DNA from: a virus
Reading direction: 5' to 3' (one strand)
Virus record (IMG/VR): IMGVR_UViG_3300017769_000001
Location: 32,001 to 96,000 of that record
Length of the DNA stretch: 64,000 bases
The translations under genes and the position numbers were made by a program. The notes beneath the pieces were generated by a model that ran no database searches, was not told the origin of the DNA, and saw only the letters and a program-made list of their open reading frames with translations. Shown piece by piece: positions 9,248 through 27,136 of this stretch (the stretch's first letter is position 1; each line of letters starts with the position of its first letter).

Positions 9248-9681
9248 GAATTGAAGAAATATGGACTCCGGGGGAGCAAGAGTACGACGATCTTACACTG
9301 GAGATTAAGGAAGTCTACTCTGGGAGGCTTCTACTAAACTTTGACGATGAACAGGTCAAATATTTGTATCGTGGCGTGTCGAAAGAAGAATACGAAGACA
9401 TCGTCGAAAGCGGAGTCATCAAGCCTTCTAAATTTTATGGAAGGATCCATGCTTCTGCTATCCCTGTGATCGTCGACAGCGACGTATACGTGGTGCTGAA
9501 GATAAAGTACGTACCTTCGGACGGGTGGAAGCCAAAAGCTGCTTCTACAGGCGTATACGCGGTCACAGGAAAGGAAATCCCCAAGGATCGGATCATGGAT
9601 AAGATCCCGGTAGGAATTGCAAGAACTGAAGTCCTTCTCAGGAAAACAAGAATGAGTCAATTCATGGAGTTTCAAACGTGA
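9244..9681 (+). CDS. MRIEE-leader internal head protein, ART-like; paralog of 10972..11409
   Basis: YLYRGVS.EEY..I..SG.IK motif. Confidence 0.65.
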   Translation: MRIEEIWTPGEQEYDDLTLEIKEVYSGRLLLNFDDEQVKYLYRGVSKEEYEDIVESGVIKPSKFYGRIHASAIPVIVDSDVYVVLKIKYVPSDGWKPKAASTGVYAVTGKEIPKDRIMDKIPVGIARTEVLLRKTRMSQFMEFQT

Positions 9682-10493
9682 GAGTTGAAGAGATATTCGA
9701 AGGAATCAGCAATGTTTTATTTCATGGGACTTCTATAGAGGCCGCAGCGTCAATTCTCAAAAGGAATGAGTTCCGCCTGATTCCAGAACTCGCCACCGGG
9801 GAGTTTAAAATGAATGGCAGGCGCAACTCTGAATACGTTTACTTCATGTCTACAGCAAGGACAAAGCAGTCTGATTTTACATCAAAAACCGAAGTGATAT
9901 TTCGTCTCGACGGTCGTAAACTTTCCGCAAATTACACAGGGAGCCCAGTCAGCTTCTTCGGAGACAAATCCGCTATGGATGAAAGCGAAGATCGGATATA
10001 CTCGATGAACCCGACTATAAAAAGAGCATCCCAATACATCACTGCTGTTGAAATGTATAGTATGTTCGGGTCATTTGACGACACAGAGTCCTTCATCATT
10101 CAAACATCGATGAAGATGGGGATTCCTGTTCGGGTTTATGATTCAAAAGAAGATATGGCATCAAATCAACGTCCGTGGTCAGAAGAGAAGGTAATATCTT
10201 CTCTGGAGGGAGAACCGAGGATCCCAGACAGAGGGATGAACAAAGATGCAGAAGAAGTTGGGGATCTTGTTGTTCGATTATTCAAAGGAAGATTTTTTGA
10301 TGATTCAGAAAACAAGTTAAAGAAAGCGTTGCGATACAATGAATTCGACAACCTGATCAACGAATTGTTGCGTAAAGGGTCTGACAACACTCGACACGAA
10401 ATAATGCGGGAAATGAGATTGAATAAGATCCAAAGCATATCTGGGTTGAGAAAGTGGGTTCACGACGAAATGCGCAAGAGAGGTGAAATGTGA
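9678..10493 (+). CDS. MRVEE-leader internal head protein, ART-like; paralog of 12743..13387
   Basis: LFHGTS, FMSTAR, ESEDR (H-S-ExE). Confidence 0.65.
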   Translation: MRVEEIFEGISNVLFHGTSIEAAASILKRNEFRLIPELATGEFKMNGRRNSEYVYFMSTARTKQSDFTSKTEVIFRLDGRKLSANYTGSPVSFFGDKSAMDESEDRIYSMNPTIKRASQYITAVEMYSMFGSFDDTESFIIQTSMKMGIPVRVYDSKEDMASNQRPWSEEKVISSLEGEPRIPDRGMNKDAEEVGDLVVRLFKGRFFDDSENKLKKALRYNEFDNLINELLRKGSDNTRHEIMREMRLNKIQSISGLRKWVHDEMRKRGEM

Positions 10494-20697: not shown

Positions 20698-20703
20698 TAC
20701 GAG

Positions 20704-20785
20704 AGTGATGTGAGAATCGAACTCACCAGAACATCAGAAGCGCATTTCCGGCGTCCCTCCAGTCAACCACTTCTCACAAACCACC
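20704..20785 (-). pseudogene. Degenerate tRNA-like element
   Basis: T arm GTGAG-TTCGATT-CTCAC and weak acceptor stem; no CCA or clear anticodon arm. Confidence 0.45.
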
Positions 20786-20828
20786 AACGCGCTGATGACT
20801 GTGATGTCAGACCTTATCACCCATAAAA

Positions 20829-21352: not shown

Positions 21353-21455
21353 CGCATCGCCAGTCAAGGACTCGAACCTTGTCTCCCGGTTGTCTCCTTC
21401 CCTAGTGTTGGGCGAGTCCAGCCAGTTTGCTCCAATACACCACATAGGCGATGCG
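21353..21455 (-). ncRNA. tRNA-mimic RNA with 9-bp closing stem and T arm, no CCA
   Basis: CGCATCGCC/GGCGATGCG; CAAGG-TTCGAGT-CCTTG. Confidence 0.55.
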
Positions 21456-21471
21456 TCTTACTCGAAGGGCA

Positions 21472-21831
21472 CTACCCCTTCTTTCTGAAATCGTTCAACG
21501 TTTTCTTTGAAACGTCGAGTATTTTCAATGTTTCTTCGGGCTTCCAAGTCACGCAACTCGGCTCACTCGAAGGTTCATATCTGTTAGAGTACACGTATCC
21601 GTTAACCGAGTCAACCTCTTTTTCGAAAACAGACCGCCAGTCATAACCGTGATCAATTTCCTCTACAAACCGACTCGTATCAACTTCTACTCTGTGAAGG
21701 AAAAACTCAGAGTTCCTTCCGATCTTCCGAGCAACCGCTTCCAGAGCACTTTCCAGAGATCCAACATGAACACCCTGTTCTGTACACCGGAATCGACTTA
21801 TGAGTACCGGCGATGCATGATACGCTATCAT
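21472..21831 (-). CDS. Small ART-PolyVal-like protein inside the tRNA operon
   Basis: AYHAS, GVHVGS..SA, GYVY.NRYE. Confidence 0.55.
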   Translation of the reverse strand: MIAYHASPVLISRFRCTEQGVHVGSLESALEAVARKIGRNSEFFLHRVEVDTSRFVEEIDHGYDWRSVFEKEVDSVNGYVYSNRYEPSSEPSCVTWKPEETLKILDVSKKTLNDFRKKG

Positions 21832-22109
21832 GGTGCTGGTTTCTCTGCGGATCCTTTCCTTCCCTCTGCAACGTATCCGGATTCGAAATTCGGAAGCTGC
21901 ATTACAGGTTCAGTACTGATAACCTCCAGCCGCGTTACATCCATCCATGACGACATGTTATACTCGCCTTTCTCATCGGCTTTCATAGTCAACACAGCCT
22001 GAATGCATCCGTAAAGGTCAAAGGAAACCGTGGTGACAACCCCTTCGATACCAGTTACTTTGTCTTTCGCACGATAACCAAGAAGATTCAGATGACTGTT
22101 TACGCTCAT
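21828..22109 (-). CDS. Hypothetical phage protein
   Basis: LG..AKDKVTG..GVVT...DLYGC.Q, W.D..RL family motif. Confidence 0.75.
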   Translation of the reverse strand: MSVNSHLNLLGYRAKDKVTGIEGVVTTVSFDLYGCIQAVLTMKADEKGEYNMSSWMDVTRLEVISTEPVMQLPNFESGYVAEGRKGSAEKPAP

Positions 22110-22141
22110 AATGCTTACTCGTTTGGTTGTGTTTAACGGTA

Positions 22142-22243
22142 ATGCCCTTACAGGGTACGCCTGCCCGATTCACGAGAGTCACATGGCGCGCTTTCCATGC
22201 TTCGGCGGTTGTTTTGTTTCCGCCACGCACCCTGTAAGGACAC
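22142..22243 (-). ncRNA. Structured RNA, 18-bp closing stem with multibranch head
   Basis: GTGTCCTTACAGGGTGCG/CGTACCCTGTAAGGGCAT with G-U pairs; inner hairpins. Confidence 0.65.
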
Positions 22244-22250
22244 TTTAAAT

Positions 22251-22344
22251 TGGTGGGGCCGGTTGGAATCGAACCAACGTTGTGTCATTGTGCCGGTTTT
22301 ACAGACCGGAGAGGAACATACACCCAGCGTCCTCAAACGTCCCC
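22251..22344 (-). tRNA. tRNA-Tyr(GTA), atypical enlarged D arm
   Basis: CCGGT-CTGTAAA-ACCGG anticodon arm, T arm, CCA. Confidence 0.8.
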
Positions 22345-22348
22345 AAAA

Positions 22349-22426
22349 TGGTAGCGGGAGAGGGATTCGAACCCCCGTCATTTGGCTTATGAGACCAAGC
22401 TGGAACCAACTCCAGTCCACCCCGCG
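22349..22426 (-). tRNA. tRNA-Met(CAT), initiator-like
   Basis: CGCGGGG 5' end with 1:72 mismatch, CCA. Confidence 0.85.
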
Positions 22427-22430
22427 TCAA

Positions 22431-22560
22431 ATGTTATTTGGCAATCGCTTGCTGGCCTGAATGGGCAGACCTTAACCTGTAGCCGAGTCAGGTTCCCTCT
22501 CCCTTTGCTCAACATCTTTCGGGCTATATTGCAAAGGAACAAGCGATTCCCAAATAACAT
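22431..22560 (-). ncRNA. Structured RNA, four-way junction with probable kissing loops
   Basis: ~21-bp closing stem, three hairpins, complementary loops. Confidence 0.7.
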
Positions 22561-22633
22561 CTTTAGATCCGCCCTCGCCCACGACCCTTGCAAGGTTCGA
22601 TAATCGTGGGCTAGGACTTGCCAACTCACTTGA

Positions 22634-22719
22634 TGGTTCCAAACAGGACTTGCACCCCTCGAACGCGCTATGCAGGAATCGAACCCAGCATCAAGATCGT
22701 TGACCATTTCGTTAGAACC
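22634..22719 (-). ncRNA. CCA-ending tRNA-like RNA with two T-loop-like hairpins
   Basis: GGTTCTAAC..GTTTGGAACCA; GGTTCGATTCC and GGTGCAAGTCC. Confidence 0.45.
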
Positions 22720-22744
22720 CATTCTACACTGATGAATGAACTCT

Positions 22745-22880
22745 GTCAACTGGCGCCTCCGTTGTTTTTTACAAGGCGGAAGCAAACCTCCTTGAAGCAG
22801 TTCCCGTGGCTTACCCAACTCGTTGATCCGACGAGCCTAATACGCTTGCCACTTCGGTATACACCCATGCTTAGGGTATA
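22745..22880 (-). ncRNA. Probable structured RNA
   Basis: Nested stems GTGGC/GCCAC, GGCTCGT/ACGAGTT, GCTTCCG/CGGAGGC, AACTG/CAGTT; no credible ORF. Confidence 0.45.
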
Positions 22881-22882
22881 TT

Positions 22883-22960
22883 TGGTAGGGGCGGTGAGAC
22901 TCGAACTCACGACCTACTGGTTAAAAGCCAGTTGCTGCTAACCAACTGAGCTACGCCCCT
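22883..22960 (-). tRNA. tRNA-Lys(TTT)
   Basis: Cloverleaf, CCA. Confidence 0.9.
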
Positions 22961-22975
22961 ATGTCCTTATTAATT

Positions 22976-23051
22976 TGGTAGTCGGAGTAGGAATCGAACC
23001 CACGTAGAACGGTATGTAAAACCGCCGCATAAGCCACTCTGCCATCCGACT
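22976..23051 (-). tRNA. tRNA-Val(TAC)
   Basis: Cloverleaf, CCA. Confidence 0.85.
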
Positions 23052-23055
23052 GAAT

Positions 23056-23134
23056 TGGTGTGAAGGACGAGAATCGAACTCGCGTATACAAGGGTCACAA
23101 CCTTGCGCCTTAACCAACATCGGCCACCTTCACC
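23056..23134 (-). tRNA. tRNA-His(GTG)
   Basis: Cloverleaf with G-1, CCA. Confidence 0.9.
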
Positions 23135-23140
23135 ACAACG

Positions 23141-23401
23141 TTACTTTACGCTGTAACATGCTGTTCCGGTTGCATTCTCGTTCCCAGCGACGAAAACACA
23201 CCGAACGTCGTCGCTGAAAGCAGGCGTCCATTCATAGACGCGAACATCGAACCCATGGGTCTCCAGTTTATACTTCACATCGGAATCCCGAGTAGTCCAT
23301 GACATCGTCACTGCACTGTCAAGCCACCCCGCGTTTACAGCTGCGATTGATGAAAAACTGATCGCAACTGCTGCCAGTACTACAAAGAAAAGCTTCTTCA
23401 T
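23141..23401 (-). CDS. Small secreted protein
   Basis: Signal peptide MKKLFFVVLAAVA, AGGAG RBS, RVYEWTP..C motif. Confidence 0.75.
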   Translation of the reverse strand: MKKLFFVVLAAVAISFSSIAAVNAGWLDSAVTMSWTTRDSDVKYKLETHGFDVRVYEWTPAFSDDVRCVFVAGNENATGTACYSVK

Positions 23402-23426
23402 TACTCTCTCCTGCTTTGGTTGTGGA

Positions 23427-23561
23427 TTGTGACGACTCAAGCTTACAAGGAATCCCGCTTAACGCTTCACACGGCATAAGACTCACACTAACCGTGTACC
23501 CTGCCACACCGGAGTCCCGGCGTTTCTTGATAAGGCATTACTCAAATGAGTGCCGTCACAA
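23427..23561 (-). ncRNA. Structured RNA immediately 3' of tRNA-Ile
   Basis: Closing stem TTGTGACGGC/GTCGTCACAA; inner TACACGGT/GCCGTGTG and CGCCGG/CCGGTG. Confidence 0.55.
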
Positions 23562-23563
23562 AA

Positions 23564-23639
23564 TGGTGCTAGGATCTGGATTCGAACCAGAGACCAATCG
23601 CTTATCAAGCGAACGTTCTACCAACTGAACTATCCTAGC
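23564..23639 (-). tRNA. tRNA-Ile(GAT)
   Basis: Cloverleaf, CCA. Confidence 0.9.
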
Positions 23640-23856
23640 GCAAACGTTTGTCGTTAACACGAACAAAATCAAAAACCAATCGATGTAGTGATGTAAGTTC
23701 TTCTTCACTCATTTCTTTCTTACGACCGCACCGCTCACAAACTTTGTATTTCGTAACTCTCAGTAGAGACCGATACGGGTGACTGGGGTCGATCCGAAGC
23801 TTTTTATACTTATGGAATCCAACCACACACTTAAACGGTTTCATTTCTAACACCAT
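23635..23856 (-). CDS. Small C..G.H / CxRC zinc-binding phage protein
   Basis: C.VGFHKY..CERCG. Confidence 0.6.
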   Translation of the reverse strand: MVLEMKPFKCVVGFHKYKKLRIDPSHPYRSLLRVTKYKVCERCGRKKEMSEEELTSLHRLVFDFVRVNDKRLR

Positions 23857-24124
23857 CTACTTCGTCGATATACCGCTGTGGTACTTTCTGACCAGAACAA
23901 AACTGGGTCGAAATCTCTGACTTGGAGTTCACATAAACATACCCACGTTCAATAACTCCGACTTCCTCGTTATAACGGTCGCGTACCAGTGCGATGTCTT
24001 TCCGATGATAATCCTTCTCTTCCATCAGAGCTTCTGAATAACTGTCGACTTTGTAGGTGTCTTGAATATCACCATGTTCGTCCACCTGCTCGACAACCCA
24101 TTCATAGGAAACTTTGTTTTTCAT
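23831..24124 (-). CDS. Hypothetical protein
   Basis: GGGAG RBS; own promoter TTGACA-17-AATAAT at 24183-24155. Confidence 0.7.
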   Translation of the reverse strand: MKNKVSYEWVVEQVDEHGDIQDTYKVDSYSEALMEEKDYHRKDIALVRDRYNEEVGVIERGYVYVNSKSEISTQFCSGQKVPQRYIDEVDGVRNETV

Positions 24125-24192
24125 GACATCTCCCAGAAGTTCTAGTGAGATTGAATTATTTCACAATAGAGTTTCGATGTCAACAAGAATTT

Positions 24193-24269
24193 TGGTCGGA
24201 GTAGTAGGACTCGAACCTACGACCCTCTGCTCCCAAAGCAGATGCGCTACCAGACTGCGCTATACTCCG
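24193..24269 (-). tRNA. tRNA-Pro(TGG)
   Basis: Canonical cloverleaf, CCA. Confidence 0.95.
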
Positions 24270-24273
24270 ATGT

Positions 24274-24353
24274 TGGCACCCCCGGTAGGAATCGAACCCA
24301 CATGTGTCCAGTTAGCCTTTCTACTGGTTCGTAGCCAGAGGGCATACAGGGGT
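24274..24353 (-). tRNA. D-armless tRNA-Arg(ACG)-like RNA
   Basis: Acceptor stem, T arm, CCA and CTGG-CTACGAA-CCAG arm present; no D arm; ~20-nt extra region. Confidence 0.65.
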
Positions 24354-24359
24354 ATTAAA

Positions 24360-24435
24360 TGGTGGAACGACAGGGACTCGAACCCTGAACCTGAGCCTTG
24401 CAAAGACCCTGCTCTCCCAGTTGAGCTATCATCCC
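24360..24435 (-). tRNA. tRNA-Ala(TGC)
   Basis: G3:U70, CCA. Confidence 0.9.
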
Positions 24436-24436
24436 G

Positions 24437-24538
24437 AGTATACATTGATCCTGCCTCTATGGCAATCCAAGCGATTCGTATAGGTCAGTGCCAACCAACC
24501 ACAACACACGCCCAGTAAAGGCAGGATCAATGTATACT
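24437..24538 (-). ncRNA. RNA with perfect 20-bp closing stem and ~60-nt head
   Basis: AGTATACATTGATCCTGCCT/AGGCAGGATCAATGTATACT. Confidence 0.65.
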
Positions 24539-24543
24539 TAAAT

Positions 24544-24642
24544 TGGCGGAAGGACAGGGATTCGAACCCTGACGTCTACTCACGTAAACCCTCGGTTTTC
24601 AAGACCGCTGCCGCTACCCAGACTCTTTCGGCTTACCCTTCC
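24544..24642 (-). tRNA. tRNA-Ser(TGA), enlarged D loop
   Basis: Long variable arm, G73, CCA. Confidence 0.9.
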
Positions 24643-24651
24643 AAAATTAAA

Positions 24652-24757
24652 TGCAGGTTGGTGTCTCAAACCAAGAAATCCCGAACCCTGAACTGAGACA
24701 TTGGCAGTCTGTCGCGAATCGACACTTCCGCTCAGTTCTTTGAGGATTTTACCTGCA
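24652..24757 (-). ncRNA. Structured RNA between tRNA-Trp and tRNA-Ser
   Basis: TGCAGGT/ACCTGCA, AAATCCT/GGGATTT, GAACTGAG/CTCAGTTC, TTGGT/ACCAA. Confidence 0.6.
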
Positions 24758-24760
24758 ATG

Positions 24761-24832
24761 TGGCACTCTGTCAAGGATTCGAACCCTGCACGGCGAAGTT
24801 TGGAGCCTCGCCTGCCCCCAAGAGCCCAGAGC
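24761..24832 (-). tRNA. Atypical tRNA-Trp(CCA): minimal D arm, 7-bp anticodon stem
   Basis: GGCGAGG-CTCCAAA-CTTCGCC, T arm, G73, CCA. Confidence 0.7.
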
Positions 24833-24838
24833 ATAAAT

Positions 24839-24914
24839 TGGCTGGCGAAACAGGGCTCGAACCTGTGACCGTCTCCTTAACAGGGAGCTGCTCTACCAAC
24901 TGAGCTACACGCCA
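24839..24914 (-). tRNA. tRNA-Asn(GTT)
   Basis: Cloverleaf, CCA. Confidence 0.9.
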
Positions 24915-24925
24915 ATAAACTTACC

Positions 24926-25014
24926 TTTGAATAGAGATCTGATCGGACTTGGGTATCTAATCGACTCCGACCCCTCAAGTCTTCAACTCGATATTGGTCA
25001 GATCCCTAATCAAA
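24926..25014 (-). ncRNA. Rod-like structured RNA
   Basis: TTTGATTAGGGATCTGA/TCAGATCTCTATTCAAA and GACTTG/CAAGTC. Confidence 0.55.
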
Positions 25015-25045
25015 ACCCATCAGTTTACGCCTGATGGGACGCGTT

Positions 25046-25923: not shown

Positions 25924-25987
25924 ACTTAAATTCTCTGAGTATTCCCTTAGTTAGTGTTGAAAAACTATCAAAATTTAGACCTACTGA

Positions 25988-26085
25988 AAAATTTTAGATA
26001 CCTCTGACTAGGAGTCGAACCTAGATCGAAAACGCGAAGCGAATTCCGGCATACCGTTAACCGCACCAAAGGCATCTAAAATTTT
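25988..26085 (-). ncRNA. tRNA mimic with ~19-bp extended acceptor helix
   Basis: AAAATTTTAGATGCCTTTG/CAGAGGTATCTAAAATTTT; CTAGG-TTCGACT-CCTAG. Confidence 0.6.
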
Positions 26086-26243
26086 ACCTGAATGAAGGAC
26101 TCGAACCTCCATATCTACATTACGTTGCACTGTCAGTAGAAAGGTAGCTTTCGCCATGAGTGCAGAGTCGCTTATTAGTATTACACGACCCATTCATATC
26201 GGCTTAGGCCACACCCCCGTATACCAGTTCCGGCAATTCAGGT
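26086..26243 (-). ncRNA. 158-nt tRNA-like RNA with a large insert in place of the anticodon arm
   Basis: ACCTGAAT/ATTCAGGT, D arm CCG-GAACTGGTATA-CGG, T arm GGAGG-TTCGAGT-CCTTC. Confidence 0.65.
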
Positions 26244-26244
26244 G

Positions 26245-27130
26245 TTGGGTTTCGCATTCAACGTAACGTACAAGTAGCCGGTATTACTCGTTACTATCAA
26301 ATGCAGCTCGTTCCTATTGTACTACTTTCTTGGTAATCCACCCACAGCTTCCCAAGTTTCTTTGCTCCCCGGCCTTTTCACGCTCCGCTTTCACGGCTAC
26401 GGTCGAATCTCCGGTTTAGATCCCAATCCAACCCTTTCCGGGTTTGGCTCTAAGGGATCGTTCTGCCTATTCTCTCTATTTAGATAGCCACAATTGGCTC
26501 TGTCATCTATGAATGGAGACATCAGGCTTCGCTCCAATTTTATGGTGACGGGTTCTTCCTGCCTAAACCGTGTGATTAGCACGTTCACCATCTTCGTTAG
26601 ATCCGCCTCTCAAGGTCGCAGACCAGTAACCAAACACGCTACTCTAATAGGCTTCAATCATCCGGATGGCCGTCCGTCGATTTTCCACCTGTCTGAGCCG
26701 AACATACCCCGATATGCCAACCCAGACCCCTTTCGGGATGAAACGACCCTTTCAGGCCGATCCATTAAACGCTTTCGAGTATACGCTTGTAACGAGTATT
26801 CGGGGATCACAATATTCATCCCTACGATGATAGCATGATCGAATGTTAGTCATACTTCCCAGAACCGTTACCTTAACTGGGTAAGGAAGTCCAGAAACCA
26901 ACTTGGCGGTTGGCTCTTAAACACCCTTTATACTGGATCGGCTTTGTGCGCCAACACAACTACCAATCCGACACCGTTGTTGGGAGTAACTCAGCCAACG
27001 ACTTCTAACCTCCCTAGTGCCCTCACTATAAACAACCGCCTAAGCAATCATTTATGAAGCCCGTATGTAAGACTCCAATTTTACCTCCGGTGATCTCGGA
27101 GGGTTTCACCGCCGGGTTCCCCCGACTGCG
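26245..27130 (-). ncRNA. Giant structured ncRNA (~885 nt), GOLLD/ROOL-like class
   Basis: No credible ORF, many GNRA-capped stems, complementary loops, dedicated promoter, next to tRNAs. Confidence 0.7.
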
Positions 27131-27136
27131 TAATCT

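Follow-up and report, generated by a model that had tools for sequence, protein, structure and literature searches.

Stem-closed structured RNA elements between the tRNA genes of a phage as candidate stable small RNAs

The window analysed here, a stretch of 64,000 nucleotides (nt), comprises bases 32001-96000 of the virus record IMGVR_UViG_3300017769_000001, a single contig of 148,739 base pairs (bp) that carries direct terminal repeats and is rated complete. The genome encodes rIIA, a portal protein and a protein of 671 amino acids (aa) that shares about 49% identity with one from myophages (about 145 kb) of Klebsiella and Serratia. On its minus strand the window carries an RNA-gene island with 22 transfer RNAs (tRNAs), and the subject of this work is seven spacers between them, named el1 to el7 in order of position, which a preliminary description had put forward as self-contained RNAs. 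With moderate confidence we regard the island as a carrier of mixed, self-contained structured RNA cassettes that are co-transcribed with the phage tRNAs and accumulate as stable small RNAs. Unless another contig or the whole genome is named, coordinates are those of the window, and the elements, tRNAs, modules and transcription signals described lie on its minus strand.

Two contigs of one sequencing run, L059 and L063, served as near relatives; they are 95-99% identical to the window and cover all elements but el6. Distant relatives were reached via the 119-aa and 97-aa open reading frames (ORFs) inside the array, namely L055, a contig of 153.6 kb whose 119-aa ORF is 66% identical, L056-L058 with 68% identity in the same ORF, and L060, a TARA ocean scaffold with 61% identity in the 97-aa ORF. 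Nineteen of the tRNAs were called by ARAGORN between 20829 and 25721, and three that it missed were recovered by a permissive Rfam scan, each with homologues in related contigs. The first, tRNA-Ser(UGA) at 24548-24642 (34.8 bits in the Rfam tRNA clan), bounds both el5 and el6 and is about 90% identical to a Vibrio phage tRNA-Ser and about 73% to tRNA-Ser(tga) of L055 and L056. The second is a Tyr-like tRNA with a GUA anticodon at 22254-22335 (25.1 bits), which bounds el2 and is 84-87% identical to L055:8830-8921 and L056:9795-9895. The third is Arg(ACG)-like (24277-24354); its D region is reduced, its variable region is enlarged, and it is conserved with 78% identity to L060:7824-7904. With these three in place, the boundaries of all seven spacers are clear.

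In all seven elements, found at the coordinates that had been described, the two ends of the minus-strand RNA pair with each other over terminal helices of 7-23 bp; their statistical weight is unequal. Compared as whole elements with shuffles, el2, el3 and el5 reach folding z-scores of -5.7, -6.0 and -7.8, while el1, el4, el6 and el7 reach -1.6, -2.6, -2.5 and -3.0. Shuffled controls were beaten by el2, el3, el5 and el7, and an end-to-end duplex test with 1000 shuffles gave p<0.001 for both el3 and el5, p=0.002 for el7 and p=0.033 for el6. Inverted repeats of at least 17 nt with arms 50-90 nt apart occur in the whole 64-kb window only as el5, el3, el2 and a further module at 25988-26085, all of them in the RNA island. 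A fixed-window folding scan, by comparison, fails to separate the island from coding DNA, 4.5% versus 2.4% of windows falling below a z-score of -3. The sense strand folds better than the antisense strand by 12.4 kcal/mol for el2, 11.6 for el4, 10.7 for el5, about 5 for el3 and about 3 for el7, whereas the minus-strand RNAs of el1 and el6 are no better folded than their complements. On these grounds and those given below we grade el2, el3 and el5 as strong, el7 as moderate, el4 as tentative and el6 as doubtful; el1 is real but tRNA-derived.

All of el2 to el7 have a tRNA end within 1-12 nt, and el5 and el6 have one on either side, so that the statement that most of them abut a tRNA holds for this group only once the three missed tRNAs are counted, and not for el1, which abuts none. 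They had also been called unrelated to one another, and an all-against-all comparison indeed found no sequence similarity among el2-el7; el1, however, is a tRNA derivative. G-U pairs, reported as common in the terminal helices, are common in the closing helix of el2 alone, the stems of el3 and el5 being almost pure Watson-Crick inverted repeats.

The best-supported element is el2 (22140-22245, the spacer as first described being 22142-22243), a four-way junction in which a closing stem of about 21 bp, with 4-5 G-U pairs that become A-C mismatches on the other strand, encloses three hairpins; its minimum free energy is -52.3 kcal/mol in sense versus -39.9 kcal/mol in antisense orientation. Homologues were found at L059:2843-2948 and twice in L055, where one copy (9678-9781) sits exactly between tRNA-Glu and tRNA-Ile and a paralogue (9872-9990) between tRNA-Ile and the homologue of the 119-aa ORF. 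When the closing stem and the three hairpins are aligned over these four sequences, 96.6% of the cells are paired and 13 of 37 pairs are changed on both sides, a level reached by none of 500 shuffles; with the partners shifted by 1-3 columns, 0-2 pairs of this kind remain. Conservation also extends to the junction strands that link the hairpins. Covariation among homologues, the absence of which had been named in advance as speaking against these RNAs, is therefore strong for el2, and the alignment is solid evidence, on comparative sequence grounds, for a selected and folded RNA. A covariance model (R1) run over the genome and 60 loci returned no further copies, and a pattern of el2 hairpin 2 had no match in IMG/VR. 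Three metagenome matches to the hairpin 2 pattern were set aside as chance, their closing stem being missing. A two-arm pattern of the el2 stalk had 21 matches in IMG/VR, none of them near a tRNA; they belong to other hairpin elements and link the stalk to no family there. A chance find of this stalk search is a hairpin of about 70 nt with a conserved 10-bp stem that occurs in nearly the same form in about ten of the IMG/VR contigs (L073-L093), away from tRNAs.

In el3 (22431-22560, 130 nt) three hairpins are enclosed by a closing stem of 11+9 bp that a single G-G mismatch interrupts, and the element ends 4 nt before tRNA-Met; a loop-loop contact within it is proposed. It is 100% identical in L059, and a covariance model built on it (R2) found no other copy in the genome and in the loci of seven relatives. 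The 102 nt of el5 (24437-24538) are closed by a 23-bp stem and border closely on tRNAs, with 9 nt to tRNA-Ser(UGA) upstream and 1 nt to tRNA-Ala downstream; the minimum free energy is -51.5 in sense versus -40.8 in antisense orientation. Both differences between el5 and L063 fall in one 6-bp internal hairpin of the centroid fold, where, by hand pairing, they keep the pairs (U-A to U-G, G-U to A-U). The 3' closing strand of el5 (24437-24465) contains a promoter-like TTGCCA-17-TATACT with 10 of 12 consensus positions, whose start would fall a few bases inside tRNA-Ala and which is probably unused. The moderately graded el7 (24926-25014, 89 nt) has a closing helix of 11+4 bp and lies between tRNA-Asn and a terminator-like hairpin that trails tRNA-Phe; its single difference to L063 breaks the top stem pair (A-U to A-C).

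The tentative el4 (23427-23561) is a branched RNA of 135 nt with a 9-bp closing helix and a minimum free energy of -48.2 in sense versus -36.6 in antisense orientation. A gap of 2 nt separates its start from tRNA-Ile, and downstream of it follows an ORF of 86 aa with a signal peptide. Among its four differences to L059, two keep the pairing (A-U to G-U, G-U to G-C), a third affects a predicted pair that is isolated and weak, and the fourth an unpaired base; it is these pair-preserving substitutions alone that tentatively suggest el4 as a structured RNA. Over 9 nt, a segment of el4 predicted to be single-stranded (23526-23539) is perfectly complementary to the anticodon loop of the tRNA-Ile next to it (23596-23609). 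This is probably a coincidence; complements of this class occur at the chance rate, with 3 observed versus 2.3 expected. As to el6 (24652-24757), placed between tRNA-Trp and tRNA-Ser(UGA), its closing helix measures 7 bp, its antisense strand folds slightly better, and it shows only a degenerate T-like hairpin. It is overlapped by a near-consensus promoter (TTGACA-17-TAAAAT, 24774-24746) whose transcripts would start inside the element, and in L063, the nearest relative with 98% identity, an HNH-like ORF and a different tRNA-Ser(UGA) replace both el6 and its tRNA-Ser. We conclude that el6 is probably not a real module.

For el2 and el4 the neighbouring ORFs bring in another explanation, by which the two RNAs are cis-acting 5' leaders that stabilise or regulate the genes downstream of them. 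The arrangement is suggestive in that el2 lies upstream of a pair of ORFs (93 and 119 aa), its L055 paralogue at 9872-9990 lies about 10 nt upstream of the 119-aa homologue, and el4 ends 25 nt before the ATG of the ORF for the 86-aa secreted protein, just upstream of its ribosome-binding site. The other el2 copy of L055, however, is placed between two tRNAs with no ORF after it, and L056 possesses the 119-aa homologue but no el2; we regard a leader function as improbable.

A different origin applies to el1 (21353-21455), in which a 9-bp closing helix encloses a long central hairpin and a T arm 3 nt before the 3' closing strand. Although none of the seven elements matches the tRNA clan (RF00005) at E-values up to 10, el1 is 68% identical to L055:12258-12354, which ARAGORN calls as a tRNA of 97 nt and which scores 40.4 bits with the Rfam tRNA model. 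By inspection, the closing helix of el1 is kept in L055 with a different sequence, and the single difference to L059 turns an A-U into a G-U pair. Because the L055 counterpart scores as a tRNA, and T arm and closing helix are kept, el1 is, as judged from these relatives, a decayed tRNA derivative that has retained its T arm. The T-loop segment is also the only motif shared between modules of the island, namely el1, 25988-26085, 26086-26243, 22566-22712 and 20703-20822. The module at 25988-26085, an inverted repeat labelled I4 with a fold z-score of -4.4, carries its T arm on a 19-bp closing stem and bridges the tRNA-derived and the non-tRNA builds. A further conserved RNA at 22566-22712, absent from the preliminary list, combines a T-arm-like hairpin with a long one, and a near-consensus promoter (22749-22721) lies just ahead of its start; it is 63% identical to L056:15632-15769, whose fold has a z-score of -7.4, and of its 6 compensated pairs the long hairpin holds 5. 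In L055 (8708-8823) and L056 (9680-9794) a homologous closed-stem module with a T-loop-like segment is placed upstream of the Tyr-like tRNA, with one stem pair compensated by inspection; the window is without it, its Met and Tyr-like tRNAs being 13 nt apart.

The precedent of bacteriophage T4, to which the preliminary description had pointed, is sound. Two RNAs, rnaC (species 1, 139 nt) and rnaD (species 2, 119 nt), are annotated in the T4 tRNA cluster; they are long-known stable RNAs whose function has been unknown for decades and which have been treated as a curiosity. Like the elements described here, they lie on the tRNA strand inside the tRNA cluster, next to tRNAs and in a similar size range. 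With its paired ends and a canonical T arm beside the 3' strand, rnaC has the build of el1 and 25988-26085, a build not found in el2, el3, el4, el5 and el7, while rnaD shows no significant fold (z-score -0.8). Sensitive blastn of the elements against rnaC and rnaD gave only matches of 11-31 nt around the T-loop motif, with E-values of at least 0.05, and hence no homology beyond it. T4 has two such RNAs, whereas the present island has at least 8 to 11, most of them without a T arm and with much longer closing stems. We distinguish two builds, a tRNA-derived one with a T arm on the closing helix (el1, 25988-26085 and T4 rnaC) and a branched one with a closing stem of 16-23 bp (el2, el3, el5, el7), of which el4 with its 9 bp is a weaker example.

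Comparison of close relatives shows both how the elements change and how they come and go. Nine substitutions separate the elements from L059 and L063. In six cases a transition leaves the pair intact (A-U to G-U, G-U to A-U or G-C), a neutrality that holds for the minus-strand RNA alone. A seventh change breaks the top pair of the el7 stem, and the remaining two affect a loop or a predicted pair that is weak and isolated. At the same time, modules are gained or lost between genomes that are otherwise 95-99% identical. In L063, about 100 nt with a short ORF replace both T-arm modules (25988-26085 and 26086-26243) at 25969-26245. In L059, a 700-nt block (2137-2844) stands where the window has only the Tyr-like tRNA and contains a different Tyr tRNA and apparently four tRNA-like RNAs of 120-195 nt; each of the three that were folded has an acceptor-like helix and a T arm, and most of the four, by reading of the sequence, end in a CCA-like tail. 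Other closed-stem modules lie between the tRNAs of more distant relatives, at L055:9863-10000 (z-score -7.8), L060:6366-6493 (-4.0) and L056:15632-15813 (-7.4).

Such turnover would also be expected if the elements were functionless debris, that is, decayed tRNA genes, scars of homing endonucleases or inserted palindromes. The descent of el1 from a sequence that still scores as a tRNA in L055, the HNH-like gene in the place of el6 in L063 and the blocks exchanged between nearly identical contigs all fit this idea, as do the stems of el3 and el5, near-perfect inverted repeats of the kind expected of young insertions. What speaks for structured RNAs instead is the covariation seen in el2 and in 22566-22712 between phages with 66-68% identity in their array ORFs, together with the dominance of pair-preserving substitutions and the better fold of the sense strand, and we consider debris an improbable account of the island.

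If the elements are indeed cassettes that accumulate as stable RNAs, their release could be explained by the tRNAs around them. Lying nearly flush with tRNA ends and on the tRNA strand, they would have their ends defined by tRNA processing, as the preliminary description had proposed and as their positions support. Host RNase P would cut at the 5' end of the downstream tRNA, and a second cut in the short A/U-rich trailer after the upstream CCA would leave a nearly blunt, stem-closed RNA; RNase III may additionally cut the stems of about 20 bp. The blunt closed end would offer exonucleases and RNase E little hold, so that the RNA would be expected to accumulate like T4 rnaC and rnaD. The closing stem would then serve as a processing and stability device and the interior as the functional part, probably a binding site for protein or RNA. 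As a Pfam search of the complete genome found no gene for RNase III, a CCA-adding enzyme or an RNA ligase, the processing would have to fall to the host.

The long stems resemble known RNase III stalks, since the brackets of 16S and 23S rRNA and the sites in T7 early RNA likewise involve flanking stems of 19-23 bp around structured RNA in a polycistronic stable-RNA operon. A length of 19-23 bp is about that of a minimal RNase III substrate. A flanking duplex of about 20 bp that is uninterrupted or nearly so is found only in el2, el3, el5 and 25988-26085; el7 has 11+4 bp, and the 7-9 bp of el1, el4 and el6 are too short for RNase III. Unlike the rRNA stalks, those described here enclose RNAs of 60-90 nt in a phage without an RNase III gene of its own, and their cleavage is a prediction only. 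A related explanation is that the elements are processing punctuation and nothing more, RNase III-type stalks or insulators that speed tRNA maturation while their interiors are degraded and have no function in trans. The four stems of 19-23 bp, their position nearly flush with tRNA ends, the mutually unrelated interiors and the dispensability of cassettes between close relatives would all agree with it. The interior hairpins and junction strands of el2 are nevertheless conserved and compensated beyond the stalk, and both substitutions of el5 are interior with pairing kept. Most tRNAs of the array, moreover, are spaced by 1-7 nt with no stalk between them, showing that stalks are not needed for tRNA release. 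Pure punctuation is thus rather unlikely in our assessment.

The notion of a co-induced set is made doubtful by the transcription signals of the region. Six minus-strand promoters of the sigma-70 type match 11-12 of 12 consensus positions, among them the internal TTGACA-17-TAGAAT at 22721-22749, and terminator-like hairpins are found at 25775-25748, 25038-25016 and 20683-20643, the one at 25016-25038 with a T run and directly upstream of el7. With several near-consensus promoters and at least one terminator inside it, the island is, to judge from these signals, not one simple operon.

Several points weigh against cassettes that are co-transcribed and stably accumulate. With promoters inside the island at 24774 and 22749 and a terminator at 25038, one precursor does not give rise to every cassette, and the first of these promoters would remove the 5' closing strand of el6 from the transcript. 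By folding energy alone, el1, el4, el6 and el7 are not exceptional, since z-scores below -3 occur in 2.4% of the windows of a 110-nt sliding scan over the neighbouring coding region. For el3 to el7, BLAST and, in the case of el3, the covariance model gave no homologue beyond the contigs of 95-99% identity. No cassette is shown to be essential, as the closest relatives lose or swap them, and excision and stability of the cassettes are inferred.

None of the known families searched accounts for the elements. The seven had no Rfam match at the gathering threshold or at E-values up to 10, and the scans with Rfam 15 gave no self-cleaving ribozyme, riboswitch, T-box, transfer-messenger RNA (tmRNA), GOLLD, ROOL or antitoxin small RNA, as far as Rfam holds them; antitoxin and regulatory small RNA families are presumably included. 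Weak matches to the permuted tmRNA model (21.8 and 16 bits) were rejected because they overlap parts of true tRNAs, and a retron msr-msd RNA was discarded since the Pfam search of the complete genome found no reverse transcriptase (RVT_1). Bacterial Y RNAs (YrlA and YrlB, bound by Rsr/Ro60) are alike in that their ends form a long stem in an RNA of about 100 nt, YrlA carries a tRNA-like head, and some phage copies of Y RNA lie near tRNAs. The YrlA model, however, reached only 18.6 bits, on a true tRNA, and the same Pfam search gave no TROVE/Ro60 gene. GOLLD and ROOL RNAs are structured RNAs encoded by phages, often beside tRNA islands (PMC12286853). They differ from the elements in size and form, being multimeric cages of 500-800 nt or more, compared with 90-135 nt here. 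The literature searched describes GOLLD and ROOL near phage tRNA islands but no small stem-closed cassettes.

The preliminary description had interpreted the elements as a library of decoy or antidote RNAs that tRNA processing releases against RNA-sensing or RNA-based host defences. By general reasoning, diverse interiors and fast cassette turnover fit an arms race, and the region is of early type and strongly promoted. This idea predicts mimicry of host RNAs or of anticodon arms, and neither was found; there is no similarity to an Rfam family even at E-values up to 10, the predicted folds show by inspection no anticodon-arm-like hairpin, complementarity to anticodon loops stays at the chance level given above, and no defence-related partner gene was identified in the island. 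The sequence checks lend the decoy reading no support, and we regard it as very improbable. The preliminary observation is partly confirmed and its interpretation partly supported.

Returning to stable RNA cassettes as the preferred explanation, a single phage with many differently shaped RNAs of the T4 type would turn an oddity into a class open to study. The island supplies defined RNAs for deletion, expression, probing and use as bait, together with a concrete processing model, built on the closing stem and the adjacent tRNA ends, that is open to end-mapping. A further warning to annotators is that what is taken for a spacer or called as a small ORF in a phage tRNA array may be an RNA gene. 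A wider proposal, which we consider decidedly unlikely, is that tRNA operons are platforms for exchangeable cassettes of stalk and cargo, with at least 8 present here, in which the closing stem is a generic device for excision and stability and the interiors form a fast-turning trans-acting repertoire. The interiors would, for instance, bind proteins of host defence or RNA metabolism and be exchanged among phages in the manner of gene cassettes. Within this phage, the stalks differ from one another.

The 119-aa ORF (21472-21831; homologues P0001-P0005) is the only array ORF, among those searched, that occurs in the arrays of both distant lineages, L055 and L056, L060 ending before that region is reached; an RNA of the el2 type precedes it both in the window and in L055. 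No array ORF had a Pfam match, and an AlphaFold2 model of the 119-aa protein with a pLDDT of 54 was too poor for a fold search. Searches of IMG/VR with the 119-aa ORF and of JGI metagenomes with a profile of its family gave no match, IMG/VR held only homologues of at most 51% identity for the 671-aa neighbour, and megablast and blastn of the array against INPHARED matched the tRNAs only, with no close relative. Ahead of the tRNA island and directly downstream of two consensus promoters (27277 and 27165), a segment of about 0.9 kb (26245-27131) contains no credible ORF; it has no Rfam match at E-values up to 5 and is by that test neither GOLLD nor ROOL. The second tRNA cluster of the genome (19233-19976) has a single large gap, which holds an ORF and no cassette.

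The arrays of the distant relatives show two further features. In L055 and L056 a purine-rich UAGGAGA, not present in the array of the window, marks the end of many gaps, both those that lead directly into a tRNA 5' end and those that precede an ORF; it is therefore not solely a ribosome-binding site and could be a processing signal. The window also has no convincing counterpart of the circularly permuted two-piece tmRNA that lies within the tRNA array of L056 (15056-15276), scores 89.5 bits in Rfam and has a tag peptide read by ARAGORN.

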